A DNA stretch of 64,000 bases from Candidatus Sericytochromatia bacterium. GTDB taxonomy: Bacteria; Cyanobacteriota; Sericytochromatia; S15B-MN24; UBA4093. A program made the position numbers and the translations under genes. The notes beneath the pieces are model-generated. The model had not been told where the DNA came from. It saw nothing but the letters and a program-made list of their open reading frames with translations, and ran no database searches. Positions within the stretch are counted from its first letter, which is position 1, and every line of letters starts with the position of its first letter. Below, piece by piece: positions 16,192-27,540 of the stretch. Location: the NCBI GenBank assembly GCA_036676495.1, contig JAKFCT010000015.1, forward strand, positions 1 through 64,000, in the 5' to 3' direction.

Positions 16192-16848
16192 TCATCGAAG
16201 GATGCGCGGACCTCCCAACAGCGTTAGCAGCTGATCGGGACGATCGATCGAATAGGCTGCGCCAAGATGGGCCTTTCCATACCCGTAGCGGGCAGCAACA
16301 AAGGCGAGATCGCATGCCTGTGCGGCAAGCGCGTCGTCCACCGAGTCCCCCACCAGCATCGTCGTTTCGGGATCGAGGCCATGACTTGAGACCAGATGGG
16401 CAGCGGCGGCGGATTTGGTTTCGAAGCGAGGCAGCACCGAATCGGGAGAGAGCACCTCGACAAACATGTCCGCAAGACCCAATGCCTCGAGAATGCGGGT
16501 GGTAGGTAACTTGGGTTTGTTCGTGACGATATAGGACTGAATTCCCATGCGGCCGAGTTCCCGGAGAGTCTCCGACACTCCCGGATAGAGGACCGACTTC
16601 AAGCAGCCTGAGTGATCATAGAGTTCCCGATAGGCTGATTCAAGGCGGACGAGTATTTCGGCGGATGGATAATCCAAGGCCCGGTTAAAGATCTCCCGGA
16701 TCGGCGGTCCGACCAGGCTTCTTTCAAAGCGATGTGCTACGCCCGGAAGCTCGCGTTCCAGCGCCTCCAGCACGGCCGCTTCGATGCCGGGGAACGAATC
16801 GACCAGGGTCCCATCCATGTCGAAGAGGACGGCAGAATACGTACTCAT
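16192..16848 (-). CDS. HAD-family hydrolase (phosphoglycolate phosphatase-like)
   Basis: FDMDGTLVDS, IVTNK, LVGDSVDD; start set at ATG 16848 after GAGG. Confidence 0.85.
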   Translation of the reverse strand: MSTYSAVLFDMDGTLVDSFPGIEAAVLEALERELPGVAHRFERSLVGPPIREIFNRALDYPSAEILVRLESAYRELYDHSGCLKSVLYPGVSETLRELGRMGIQSYIVTNKPKLPTTRILEALGLADMFVEVLSPDSVLPRFETKSAAAAHLVSSHGLDPETTMLVGDSVDDALAAQACDLAFVAARYGYGKAHLGAAYSIDRPDQLLTLLGGPRILR

Positions 16849-16855
16849 TTGAACC

Positions 16856-17905
16856 TCACTTGGCGGGGATAGCTTGTGCCCACGCCGCTGTCCGTCGAAT
16901 GGCCTCTGACAATCCGATGAGTGTTCCGAGTCCAAGCTCGTCCTGGGCACGCCCGGTGGACGGAACGTAACGCGACGGGAGAGCTCCGGGTTTGGGCGCC
17001 TTTGCGATCTGGACCTCCGGCTGGTGAGGAAAGGCCTCCGAAACCGTACGAGCGAGATCCGCAATGGTCAGATCGGCATCAGAGCCCACGTTATAGGGCC
17101 GACCGGGTGTACCGGCGATCAGCAACGTCCAGAGCCAGATCGCGAGATCGGCCGCATACAGGTAAGACCGATAGGGAGTGCCGTCGCCGCCTATCCGGAT
17201 CGCTCCCCCGGAAAGCGCATCCCGAATGAAATTGCCGATCGCGAAGTGCGTGCCCAAGGGAAGGTAAGGACCCACGAAGGCGAAGCAGCGAGCGATGATC
17301 GGCTCCAGCCCGTGCTGCTTCTGGTAAAGGACACAGAGCAACTCGGAGATGCGCTTGCCTTCGCCGTAGGCCGAAGCCGGATTCAAGGAATCGGGGGCCC
17401 CCATGAACGTCTCCGGCACATGGGTGATCTCCGTGGGCTGCGGCCCGTAGATCGCTCCCGAACTGGTCAGCAGGAAGCGGCGGGCACCCGCCTGACGGGC
17501 GAATTCGAGGACGTGGCGTGTTCCTTCCACGATCGTTTCGAGCATGGCCAGGCCGTCCTCTTCGTTGAGCTTGGCGCTCGCCTCGGTCGCCGCATGAATC
17601 ACATAGTCGAACTTTCCGAGGGGGAAGCGGAAATCGCGAACATCGCCCTCATGCAAGTGAACCGCCGGTTGGTCGGCAAGATGCGGGGCCTTCAACCGAA
17701 AGTTTGCGGGGCTACGCGTCAAGACATGAGCCTCGGCCTGGAGGTCAAGGGCTTCATTCGCCCAAAGGAAGCTCTCCAAGAGCCAGCAGCCGAAAAATCC
17801 GGTGCCGCCCGTGATAAAAAGACGCTTCCCACGTAGCGACTCCCAGATCGCGCGGGTGTGGGCCAGGACGTGATCCAGATCGCTTGCTAATGGGTTGAGG
17901 CTCAT
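16856..17905 (-). CDS. NAD-dependent epimerase/dehydratase/reductase (extended SDR), candidate YerF-like reductase
   Basis: ITGGTGFFG, IHAAT, TSSGAIYG, YGEGK. Confidence 0.85.
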   Translation of the reverse strand: MSLNPLASDLDHVLAHTRAIWESLRGKRLFITGGTGFFGCWLLESFLWANEALDLQAEAHVLTRSPANFRLKAPHLADQPAVHLHEGDVRDFRFPLGKFDYVIHAATEASAKLNEEDGLAMLETIVEGTRHVLEFARQAGARRFLLTSSGAIYGPQPTEITHVPETFMGAPDSLNPASAYGEGKRISELLCVLYQKQHGLEPIIARCFAFVGPYLPLGTHFAIGNFIRDALSGGAIRIGGDGTPYRSYLYAADLAIWLWTLLIAGTPGRPYNVGSDADLTIADLARTVSEAFPHQPEVQIAKAPKPGALPSRYVPSTGRAQDELGLGTLIGLSEAIRRTAAWAQAIPAK

Positions 17906-17922
17906 GCGGTTCCTTCCCGACA

Positions 17923-25669: not shown

Positions 25670-25678
25670 GAGGGTCCT

Positions 25679-26683
25679 CTATTGTTTGCTCAGCGCAGGA
25701 AGCGCCTGATTGTTCTCGGAAAGGAAATTGCGGTACCAGCGGATGGTGTGATCCAAGCCCTGCTCCAGGGTGTGCCTCGGATGCCAGTCGAGCATCGTGC
25801 GGGCCTTCTCAGCCGAGAGGTACTGGTGCTTGATCTCGCCGGTCGCCTGATTGAGGACCTGTGGCGCGAGATCCTGGCGGCCCATCAGCTCGGTGATCCG
25901 GTTGACCAGCTCAAGGACGGTGATCTGCAGCTCGTTGCTGAAGTTGAACGCATGGCCGCCGAGCTCAAGGCGGTCCATCGCCTCGGCGAGGTGGAGATAG
26001 GCCTCGACGCCATCCTCGACGAAGAAGTAGTCCCGAATGTAGGAGCCGTCGCTCCGGATGACTGGTTTCTCGTCGTTGAGCAGGGAGCGGATCGTGCCCG
26101 GGATGAGGCGGTTGAAGTTGAGATCACCGGGACCGTAAAGGTTGCCGCAACGGGTGATGCAGACGTTCATGCCGTACGTGTGGTGATACGACTGGGCGAT
26201 GAGATCGGAGCAGGACTTCGAGACATCGTAGGGATGACGCCCGATGAGCGGAGCATCCTCCTGATAAGGAAGAACCTCGTGATCGCCGTAAGCCTTGTCA
26301 CTCGAGGCGAACAGCACTCGCTTGACGGTCGGGACCCGACGGCAGGCCTCGAGGAGCTGCCAAGTGCCCTTGATGTTGGCCTCGAAGGTCGAGAGCGGGC
26401 TGCGGTTGGCGGTTCCGACGATGGTCTGGGCAGCCAGGTGGAAGACGACCTCGATCTCGTACTCGTTGAGAGCCCGCTCGAGCAGGACGTAGTCCTCGAG
26501 GGCGCCGTGCACCACGCTAATCTGCTGGAGCACGCCCTCTTGGGCCAAAAGGGAGCGCGGCACGCTATCGCGGACGAGCCCGACGACGTTGGCCCCCTGC
26601 TCGACGAGGTGACGGGTCAGCGACGAGCCCAAGAGGCCCGTGCAGCCGGTGACGAAGACGTTGCGATTTTTCCAGTGACTCAC
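25679..26683 (-). CDS. rfbG: CDP-glucose 4,6-dehydratase-type SDR
   Basis: [34 protein letters not shown] overlap with rfbF; sits between rfbF and rfbH. Confidence 0.82.
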
Positions 26684-27540
26684 GAGTGATCTCCAGCAGG
26701 GACAGCAGGAAGGGAGGCAGGAATCTTGCTTTCGAGCTCGATGGACTGGCGATCGCCCCAGACCCGCCACGGAGACTCTCCCGAGGCCCAGAGGTCATTG
26801 AGGAGCTTCGCATCGCGAATGGTGTCCATGCACTGCCAGAAGTCGCTGTGGCGGTAGGCCATGAGCTGATCATCCTGCGCGAGGCGCTCGAGGGGATCCC
26901 GCTCGAAAATGCAGGCATCGTCGCGCTCGAGGTAATCGAAGACGCCCCGGTCGCAGACGAAGAAGCCGCCGTTGATGAACCCCTCTCCCATGTTGGGCTT
27001 CTCGGCGAACGAGGTGATCCGCTCTCCGTCGAACTCCATCGTGCCAAAGCGAGAGGGAGGATGGACGGCGGTCATCGTGGCGAGCTTGCCGTGGGAGTCG
27101 TGGAACGCGAGCAACTTGTGCAGATCGACATTGGAGAGGCCGTCTCCATACGTGAGGCAGAAGCGATCGGCCTGGACGTAGCGCTCGATGCGCTTGATGC
27201 GAGCTCCGGTCATGGCCTCCAGGCCGGTATCGGCCAGGGTGACCTCCCACTGCTCGGGGTGGGACGAGTGGAACTGGACACGCTTCTTCGCCAGATCGAC
27301 GGTGAAGTCGCTGTTCATGGTCTCGTAGTTGTAGAAGTACTCTTTGATGTAGTCGCCGCGGTAGCCGAGGCAGAGGATGAAGCGGTTGAACCCGAAGTGG
27401 GAGTAGTACTTCATCAGGTGCCAGAGGATCGGGCGATCGCCCACCGTGACCATCGGCTTCGGCTTGAACTCGGTTTCTTCACGCAGGCGCGTGCCTTGTC
27501 CGCCGCAAAGAATGACGACCGGGATATCGGAAGGTTTCAT
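26680..27540 (-). CDS. rfbF: Glucose-1-phosphate cytidylyltransferase
   Basis: [45 protein letters not shown]. Confidence 0.95.

Follow-up and report, generated by a model that had tools for sequence, protein, structure and literature searches.

A candidate pathway for a C4-branched CDP-deoxysugar joined to a GtrA/GtrB/GT-C module, and a clade of GtrB-type glycosyltransferases that accompanies CDP-sugar genes

We analyzed a stretch of 64,000 nucleotides (nt) from a Candidatus Sericytochromatia bacterium (assembly GCA_036676495.1, contig JAKFCT010000015.1, positions 1 to 64,000; hereafter the window) and, within it, a run of ten genes at 16192-27540. The contig is part of a 4.14-Mb genome bin of 106 contigs that is 91.9% complete and 6.7% contaminated. 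The run probably codes for the synthesis of a CDP-activated, C4-acyl-branched 3,6-dideoxyhexose and, joined to this pathway, for a three-component system for glycosylation outside the cytoplasm. The sugar part is of a known kind because its gene set matches the published scheme for acyl-branched sugars (PMC9306805). The new part is the clade to which the family 2 glycosyltransferase (GT2) of the run belongs, and gene context gives good support to a coupling with this dedicated clade, by which the run would be a variant of the three-component systems. The wider proposal is that this GT2 represents a widespread, undescribed class of polyprenyl-phosphate glycosyltransferases that uses CDP-3,6-dideoxy sugars, mostly carbon-branched, and not UDP-sugars, with lineage-specific GT-C enzymes delivering the sugar to O-antigens, wall polymers or surface proteins and with an E1 dehydrase that works without a dedicated E3 reductase. 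We regard the chances for and against this wider proposal as evenly balanced.

The GT2 of the run and its clade

The GT2 gene (20766..21743, on the minus strand like all ten genes of the run) codes for a protein of 325 amino acids (aa) with a PF00535 domain. Against solved structures it matches GtrB of Synechocystis (5EKP) with 174.9 bits over residues 4-305, ArnC with 93.8 bits and the dolichyl-phosphate mannose (DPM) synthase DPMS with 59.5 bits, and two hydrophobic segments lie near its C-terminus at about residues 227 and 258. These matches and segments point to a GtrB/ArnC-type enzyme with two C-terminal membrane helices and bear out an earlier note on this DNA, made from the sequence alone, which had placed the protein in a GtrA/GtrB/GT-C module. 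Its best NCBIfam matches, PgfS (198 bits) and ArnC (112 bits), are both below their cut-offs, and three full-length GtrB-like paralogues encoded by the same genome are only 32-35% identical to it. A second GT2 gene of the window (41574-42584, plus strand) codes for a protein that is 35% identical to the GT2 of the run and that scores 299 bits with PgfS and 209 bits with ArnC. This second protein is the more canonical GtrB-like enzyme; its gene lies among GT4, RmlA/B, Ugd and Bac_transf genes and no partner GT-C was identified for it.

Relatives of the GT2 of the run form a group at 44-88% identity that is present in at least 10 phyla, and its carriers include Microcystis, small-genome cyanobacteria, gut Bacillota, Acidobacteriota and Planctomycetota. 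When 400 other genomes of the phylum were searched, the identities were bimodal: they were at least 44% in 27 genomes and at most 41% in the rest. In a quick tree 54 clade rows and L009 are set apart from the three paralogues by a branch of 1.05 with a Shimodaira-Hasegawa-like approximate likelihood ratio test (SH-aLRT) support of 99. Residues D42-N43, N68, G156, G158 and P176 are invariant in the clade; the usual residues at these positions in other GtrB-like proteins are N/E-D, L/F, D, R and R. From the alignment, positions 42-43, 68, 156, 158 and 176 are candidate determinants of a changed donor.

Association of the clade with CDP-sugar and branching genes

The association was examined in both directions, and since related genomes are non-independent samples the counts given here are descriptive and are not statistics. 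In the forward direction we took the best 80 of the 591 genome stretches that encode a relative of the thiamine diphosphate (ThDP)-dependent enzyme of the run, at 51-87% identity; a full-flank subset is made up of the 42 of these loci that have at least 8 kb on both sides. A clade GT2 (at least 44% identity) is encoded in 42 of the 80 loci and in 27 of the full-flank subset. In the 42 loci that have it, the clade GT2 shares the strand of the ThDP gene in 40 and is downstream of that gene in 38. The full-flank loci also carry rfbF (35/42), rfbG (32/42) and rfbH (32/42).

In the 400 genomes of the phylum the ThDP gene, called at E ≤1e-110, was found in 51, namely in 23 of the 27 genomes that bear the clade GT2 versus 28 of the 373 others. 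Of the 23 genomes with both genes, 11 have them within 10 kb of each other and one has them 52 kb apart. The rfbF gene is in 213 of the 400 genomes and in 25 of the 27 clade-bearing ones; five genomes in which the genes are scattered have rfbF in all five and rfbH in four. Four clade-bearing genomes are without the ThDP gene. Three of them have rfbF and rfbG at most 10 kb from the GT2 gene, two of these three also have rfbH, and in the fourth the contig is too short for neighbors to be called. These members of the clade suggest that the common denominator is a CDP-deoxyhexose rather than a branched sugar.

In the reverse direction we took the 80 metagenome sequences most closely related to the GT2, at 62-71% identity, regardless of their neighbors. 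Of the 23 loci of at least 15 kb, 17 have the ThDP gene and 22 have the ThDP gene, rfbF or rfbH. The corresponding numbers are 22 and 28 of the 34 loci of at least 10 kb, and 29 and 39 of all 80, many of which are only 1-5 kb long. Microcystis-type loci (L100/L101 in genome G149, and L004-L006) contain genes for the ThDP enzyme, the aldolase, the short-chain dehydrogenase/reductase (SDR), GtrA and a clade GT2, and one genome with such loci has two clade GT2 copies, one by rfbG/rfbH and the other by the ThDP gene.

The presumed outer transferase is less constant. Ten large membrane proteins encoded downstream of a clade GT2 were sampled, of which two were YfhO, two PMT_2 (one of them fused to GtrA) and one GtrII, and five had no Pfam family. 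Judged by these family assignments, the putative lipid-loading enzyme is conserved and its outer partner is swapped between lineages (YfhO, PMT_2, GtrII and, in the run, DUF6311). A constant GT2, a GT-C that varies with the lineage and CDP-sugar genes found alongside in both search directions are what is expected if a CDP-sugar is the donor. The earlier note had proposed that a C4-branched 3,6-dideoxysugar is delivered by a three-component route. That proposal is supported in so far as the clade tracks the CDP-sugar and ThDP genes both ways; the CDP donor is something that we infer from gene context.

Organization of the run

The ten open reading frames are arranged head to tail, all on the minus strand, and Pfam and NCBIfam searches agree with the families that had been named for all ten. 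Start and stop codons overlap by 4 nt at four junctions: GTGA between rfbF and rfbG, ATGA between the GT-C gene and gtrA, TTGA between gtrA and the GT2 gene, and ATGA between the GT2 and ThDP genes. Thus the overlaps that had been described as tying the three membrane-protein genes to the ThDP gene are there, with that of rfbF and rfbG in addition, and translational coupling runs from the GT-C gene through gtrA and the GT2 gene to the ThDP gene. Apart from the GT2 and the GT-C, no glycosyltransferase was found among the open reading frames of the run by Pfam. Among the ThDP loci, L003 of a sister genome retains nine of the ten genes in the same order at 66-95% identity, and the order is not a matter of chance.

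The description of the genes as one run holds for their number and strand and has to be qualified in its downstream part. Between the ThDP and aldolase genes there is a gap of 142 nt, and between the aldolase and SDR genes there is a terminator-like hairpin (17933..17966, minus strand) that has 13 pairs, 8 of them G-C, and a loop of 8, and that is followed by CCTCTTTTTC. It is the strongest terminator-like site of the region. The hairpin is also the exact point where the gene content departs from that of the sister genome.

Genes for the CDP-sugar

The rfbF gene (26680..27540) codes for a glucose-1-phosphate cytidylyltransferase of 286 aa; the protein matches the TIGR02623 equivalog with 362.9 bits against a cut-off of 300.25, and also PF00483. 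For the rfbG-like gene (25679..26683), which codes for a CDP-glucose 4,6-dehydratase of 334 aa with extended SDR domains by Pfam, the GTG at 26683 was picked as the start from the junction GGAG-N8-GTGA. The rfbH product (24320..25669, 449 aa) matches NF011936 (RfbH) with 715 bits against a cut-off of 423. It has cysteines at positions 198, 256, 258 and 266, with the spacing C-X57-C-X1-C-X7-C, and the sequence PHHLTMGEGG, in which a histidine is at the position of the aminotransferase lysine. We take this cysteine spacing, together with the histidine in place of the pyridoxal phosphate-binding lysine, to be the marks of an iron-sulfur E1 dehydrase. The equivalog score, the cysteine motif and the histidine are all present, and the protein is therefore predicted to be an E1-type CDP-4-keto-6-deoxyglucose 3-dehydrase (RfbH/AscC/DdhC).

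Genes for the branch

The ThDP gene (18958..20769) codes for a carboligase-like protein of 603 aa with three TPP (thiamine pyrophosphate) domains. In the Protein Data Bank (PDB) it matches 8RPH (JanthE) with 435.3 bits (E 3.8e-129) and 5AHK, which we take to be PpYerE, with 261.8 bits, versus 236.8 bits for the best acetolactate synthase, and all of the acetolactate synthase equivalogs of NCBIfam are far under their cut-offs. By these scores the protein belongs with the YerE-like subclass (JanthE and PpYerE) and not with the acetolactate synthases, and the assignment of a YerE-type enzyme by the earlier note is upheld. The protein is about half identical to JanthE, as judged by eye from the printed alignment, and its cofactor motif is GDG where JanthE has CDG. 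JanthE is described as a YerE-like enzyme for which no physiological substrate has been identified (PMC12188165).

The next gene (17985..18815) codes for a protein of 276 aa that matches PF03328 with 35.4 bits against a cut-off of 25 and whose family is at least 70% identical across phyla. Its AlphaFold2 model has a predicted local distance difference test (pLDDT) score of 94.6, and the top Foldseek matches of the model are YfaU, HpaI, SwHKA and HpcH, with template modeling (TM) scores of 0.52-0.59. In a profile alignment the invariant residues E113 and D142 align with the metal-binding motifs of YfaU; the catalytic arginine was not located in the protein. The TIM-barrel fold of the model and the putative metal-binding Glu and Asp point to a divergent class II pyruvate aldolase of the HpcH/HpaI type. 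An aldolase gene accompanies the ThDP gene in 20 of the 80 forward loci. Four of these forward-search loci (L058, L061, L062 and L066), labeled delta proteobacterium, have two tandem aldolase paralogues after the ThDP gene.

The extended SDR (16856..17905, 349 aa) matches PF01370 with 134.7 bits and no NCBIfam equivalog reaches its cut-off with it. Homologues of at least 45% identity are encoded in 31 of the 80 loci, and their usual place is between rfbH and the ThDP gene. The protein is presumed to be the branch ketoreductase in the place of YerF or ErwF. By their presence beside the ThDP gene and by their families, the putative aldolase and reductase fit the scheme for acyl-branched sugars. 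The idea that the aldolase could make a longer ketoacid donor is thus in agreement with that published scheme (PMC9306805), and for the same reason it is not a new idea.

The last gene of the run (16192..16848) codes for a HAD-IA phosphatase that resembles phosphoglycolate phosphatases (PF00702, PF13419). The ATG at 16848, 7 nt past the SDR stop, was taken as its start, giving 218 aa instead of a frame of 290 aa; the protein has the motif DMDGT and matches NF009695 with 134 bits, below the cut-off of 225. It may dephosphorylate a phosphorylated donor or precursor. The earlier note had tied this phosphatase to the aldolase and this did not hold up: HAD homologues of at least 35% identity are present in 9 of the 80 loci, the aldolase is found in just one of the nine, and a HAD gene is missing from the sister genome, so that the HAD protein was rejected as a fixed partner of the aldolase. 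At 12793-14529 of locus L003 there are instead, between the aldolase and the extended SDR genes, a classical SDR gene (adh_short) and a gene like that of 3-dehydroquinate synthase. Tailoring therefore varies even between sister species, and the gene content of L003 hints at a different branch chemistry in this close relative.

The GT-C protein and GtrA

The gene at 22135..24300 codes for a membrane protein of 721 aa, for which the GTG at 24300 behind GGAG was taken as the start in place of a frame of 744 aa. A sequence search of the PDB with the 721-aa protein found nothing at E up to 10, and the 744-aa frame gave no match to a Pfam family with hmmscan; the precomputed Pfam label of the 721-aa protein is PF19830 (DUF6311), and it has 1118 relatives at E ≤0.001 among 8000 scored candidates. 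It was the comparison of folds that placed the protein. The AlphaFold2 model, made from 33 sequences, has a pLDDT of 89.2 and a predicted TM score of 0.86, and the best Foldseek matches are AftD (E 1.3e-8), STT3, EmbB, AglB, PglB, DPY19, AftA and ArnT; the full-length matches at E ≤0.001 are exclusively GT-C enzymes. Residues of about 595-716 form a beta-sandwich in the model with short Foldseek matches to carbohydrate-binding modules CBM61, CBM35 and CBM6, and D39 and D77, in the first outside loop, are invariant. Structure prediction, which the earlier note had set as the check on this protein, thus found a GT-C fold in the model, and a protein lacking this fold is excluded at that level. 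A tie between the DUF6311 family as such and the pathway was considered and dropped because profile relatives are absent from the 80 ThDP loci except L003.

The gtrA gene (21740..22138) codes for a small membrane protein of 132 aa, a presumed flippase, with four hydrophobic segments and a PF04138 match of 55.1 bits against a cut-off of 26.1. GtrA-like frames are found in 25 of the 80 ThDP loci. Since GtrA, a GtrB-type GT2 and a GT-C are all found in the run, all the parts of a three-component system are present.

Points against the interpretation and alternative explanations

Besides the non-independence of the samples, the following observations weigh against a branched CDP-sugar pathway that feeds a dedicated Gtr module. 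The best NCBIfam match of the RfbG-like protein, TIGR02622, scores 216 bits, which is below the cut-off of 278.45. Neither the window nor the 92%-complete genome yielded an E3 reductase of the AscD/RfbI type. PF00175 has just two matches in the genome, both of them plain frames of some 295 aa that resemble ferredoxin-NADP+ reductase (FNR) and are without the ferredoxin-type cysteine pattern, and a crude motif scan of the window together with the 80 ThDP loci found no ferredoxin-reductase fusion. RfbF, RfbG and RfbH, which according to the earlier note make CDP-4-keto-3,6-dideoxyhexose, are insufficient alone. The terminator-like hairpin separates the SDR and HAD genes from the other genes of the run. 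The GT2 and ThDP genes are split between contigs in 11 of the 23 genomes carrying the pair, and 38 of the 80 ThDP loci and 28 of the 51 ThDP genomes in the phylum sample are without a clade GT2, so that the branched sugar is often installed in another way. Since membership of the clade was set by identity to the query, the statistics of the group in the quick tree are partly circular. Finally, GtrB-type enzymes are described as users of UDP-sugars in one account (PMC11127046).

The last of these points, and the loci that lack a clade GT2, would favor an explanation in which one transcript serves two functions: the Gtr module would carry a UDP-derived hexose, while a Leloir enzyme encoded elsewhere in the cluster would add the branched CDP-sugar in the cytoplasm, and there are several GT4 and GT2 genes within the window that could be called upon. 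We consider this explanation unlikely because the GT2 of the run is not a generic GtrB, the three paralogues of the genome, one of them in the same window, being so distant from it; because the clade tracks the ThDP and rfb genes in both search directions and in at least 10 phyla; and because there is no further transferase inside the run.

A second explanation keeps a CDP-sugar as the donor and places the transfer earlier. The GT2 clade would use CDP-glucose or an early, unbranched CDP-deoxyhexose, and the lipid-linked sugar would be unfinished or would be tailored on the lipid. The three genomes without the ThDP gene in which the clade GT2 is beside rfbF and rfbG, with or without rfbH (G227, G133 and G153), agree with it, and so do the metagenome loci L122, L177 and L181, in which rfbF-rfbG come directly before the GT2 gene. 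Against it, the GT2 gene abuts the ThDP gene in the window, in L003, in G276 and in G300, of the 27 genomes with the clade 23 also have the ThDP gene, and the simplest reading is that each member of the clade uses the end product of its own cluster. This makes an early donor quite unlikely in our view. It is very improbable that the ThDP enzyme, aldolase, SDR and HAD protein make a small non-sugar molecule, for example an acyloin or some keto-acid derivative, in an incidental neighborhood of sugar genes, since rfbF, rfbG and rfbH are by the ThDP orthologue in most full-flank loci and the ThDP start overlaps the GT2 stop. In favor of such a product, no physiological substrate has been identified for the solved protein nearest to the ThDP enzyme, JanthE (PMC12188165), and the gap of 142 nt and the hairpin make the operon structure looser.

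Relation to known systems

In the unifying scheme published for acyl-branched sugars, the 4-hydroxy-2-oxo acid comes from an aldolase, its coupling to CDP-4-keto-3,6-dideoxyglucose is the task of a YerE-like enzyme, and the branch is completed by a reductase (Steitz et al. 2022, PMC9306805). The known pathways are those of yersiniose (YerE/YerF), erwiniose (ErwE/F/I/J), caryophyllose (MMAR_2331/2332) and gastriose (MyGE/MygI/MygF), with activities shown for ErwE, for MMAR_2332 and for MyGE, and MMAR_2331 is of the aldolase/citrate-lyase family (PMC9306805). Like these pathways, the run has CDP-glucose genes, a YerE-like carboligase and a neighboring aldolase and reductase, and its aldolase, like MMAR_2331, is of the aldolase/citrate-lyase (HpcH/HpaI) type. 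It differs from them in that no E3 gene was found for it and in that a HAD phosphatase gene is attached, and its ThDP enzyme differs from JanthE in having GDG and not CDG.

Three-component relatives of the glycosylation part include ArnC/ArnT and CsbB/GtcA/YfhO. The galactose system of Klebsiella and the pentofuranose systems are further relatives, and the O-polysaccharides of Klebsiella that are exported by ATP-binding cassette (ABC) transporters undergo three-component modification (PMC11127046). The run resembles the GtrA/GtrB/Gtr* glucosylation systems in having a GT2 with two C-terminal helices, GtrA and a GT-C, and in adjoining an ABC-transporter polysaccharide cluster. It is unlike them and their relatives because its donor pathway gives a CDP-deoxysugar and not a UDP-sugar or phosphoribosyl pyrophosphate (PRPP), because its GT2 is in a separate clade with invariant residues of its own, and because its DUF6311 GT-C has no solved relative that can be detected by sequence.

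A parallel is found in the lipooligosaccharides (LOS) of mycobacteria, where a DPM-synthase-like GT2 encoded in CDP-sugar clusters has been proposed to load a polyprenol carrier, with addition of the sugar outside the cytoplasm (PMC4403928), and where the model of Sarkar et al. 2011, as it is described in PMC5706390, has caryophyllose added after export of the precursor. MMAR_2333, to which the model gives the addition of caryophyllose, and M. kansasii MKAN27435 are, like the GT2 of the run, DPM-synthase-like GT2 proteins clustered with CDP-sugar genes, and the M. marinum cluster has the ThDP branching genes as well, as here. These models are hypotheses on actinobacterial glycolipids, and the parts of these sources available name no GtrA or GT-C partner. 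In our literature search no CDP-sugar-dependent GtrB-type enzyme, shown or proposed, was found outside this mycobacterial LOS setting, and an account consulted for the O-antigens of Oxalobacteraceae (PMC9834719) had nothing of relevance; Krug et al. 2024 (Angew. Chem. e202403535) or Sarkar et al. 2011 may already list a GtrB-like gene in clusters of this kind.

Proposed pathway

The families, folds, translational coupling and co-occurrence described above were observed; the substrates, the CDP-sugar specificity of the GT2, which branch is added, which glycan is the acceptor and what the HAD protein does are proposals that build on them. RfbF would form CDP-glucose and RfbG would convert it to CDP-4-keto-6-deoxyglucose. 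The iron-sulfur E1 RfbH would then take off the 3-hydroxyl with electrons from another reductase, possibly the housekeeping ferredoxin/FNR. The class II aldolase would join pyruvate and an aldehyde to a 4-hydroxy-2-oxo acid, which the YerE-like ThDP enzyme would decarboxylate so that the acyl carbanion is added to the keto group at C4, and the SDR would reduce the carbonyl of the branch. The GtrB-type GT2 would move the finished sugar from CDP to polyprenyl phosphate, GtrA would flip the lipid-linked sugar, and the DUF6311 GT-C would transfer it onto a glycan outside the cytoplasm.

The acceptor of this transfer is likely to be the polysaccharide of the adjoining ABC-transporter (Wzm/Wzt) cluster (30390..39876, minus strand). 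This cluster has genes for a reductase, Gmd (TIGR01472, 462 bits, above the cut-off), two GT4 proteins, a methyltransferase, Wzt with a Wzt_C domain, and Wzm, as assigned by Pfam and TIGR01472.

Neighboring genes

Between the run and this cluster, and divergent from rfbF, is a gene (27689..30385, plus strand) for a polytopic membrane protein of 898 aa with 13 hydrophobic segments and a C-terminal LamG domain (PF13385, residues 736-882). The gene is retained as the divergent neighbor in L003, and the protein may be a second GT-C, for which there is a weak Atlas lead (0.88) to a cluster of archaeal STT3/AglB proteins with LamG. On the other side, an RmlD gene (15266-16147, plus strand) is convergent with the run at its HAD end, and further on, at 44896-47065 (plus strand), there are genes for the long form of RmlA and for RmlB. 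Since RmlD, RmlA and RmlB are present, the region would also make dTDP-rhamnose, next to sugars derived from GDP-mannose.

Significance

Deoxysugars with a carbon branch are rare and antigenic, and little is known of the way in which they become part of glycans. If the GT2 clade does load CDP-sugars, the donor range of the three-component systems would extend past UDP-sugars and PRPP. The GT2 would then also serve as a sequence marker by which such surface sugars could be predicted from genomes, including those of bloom-forming Microcystis and of gut anaerobes, and enzymes would be at hand with which unusual sugars could be attached to engineered glycans.

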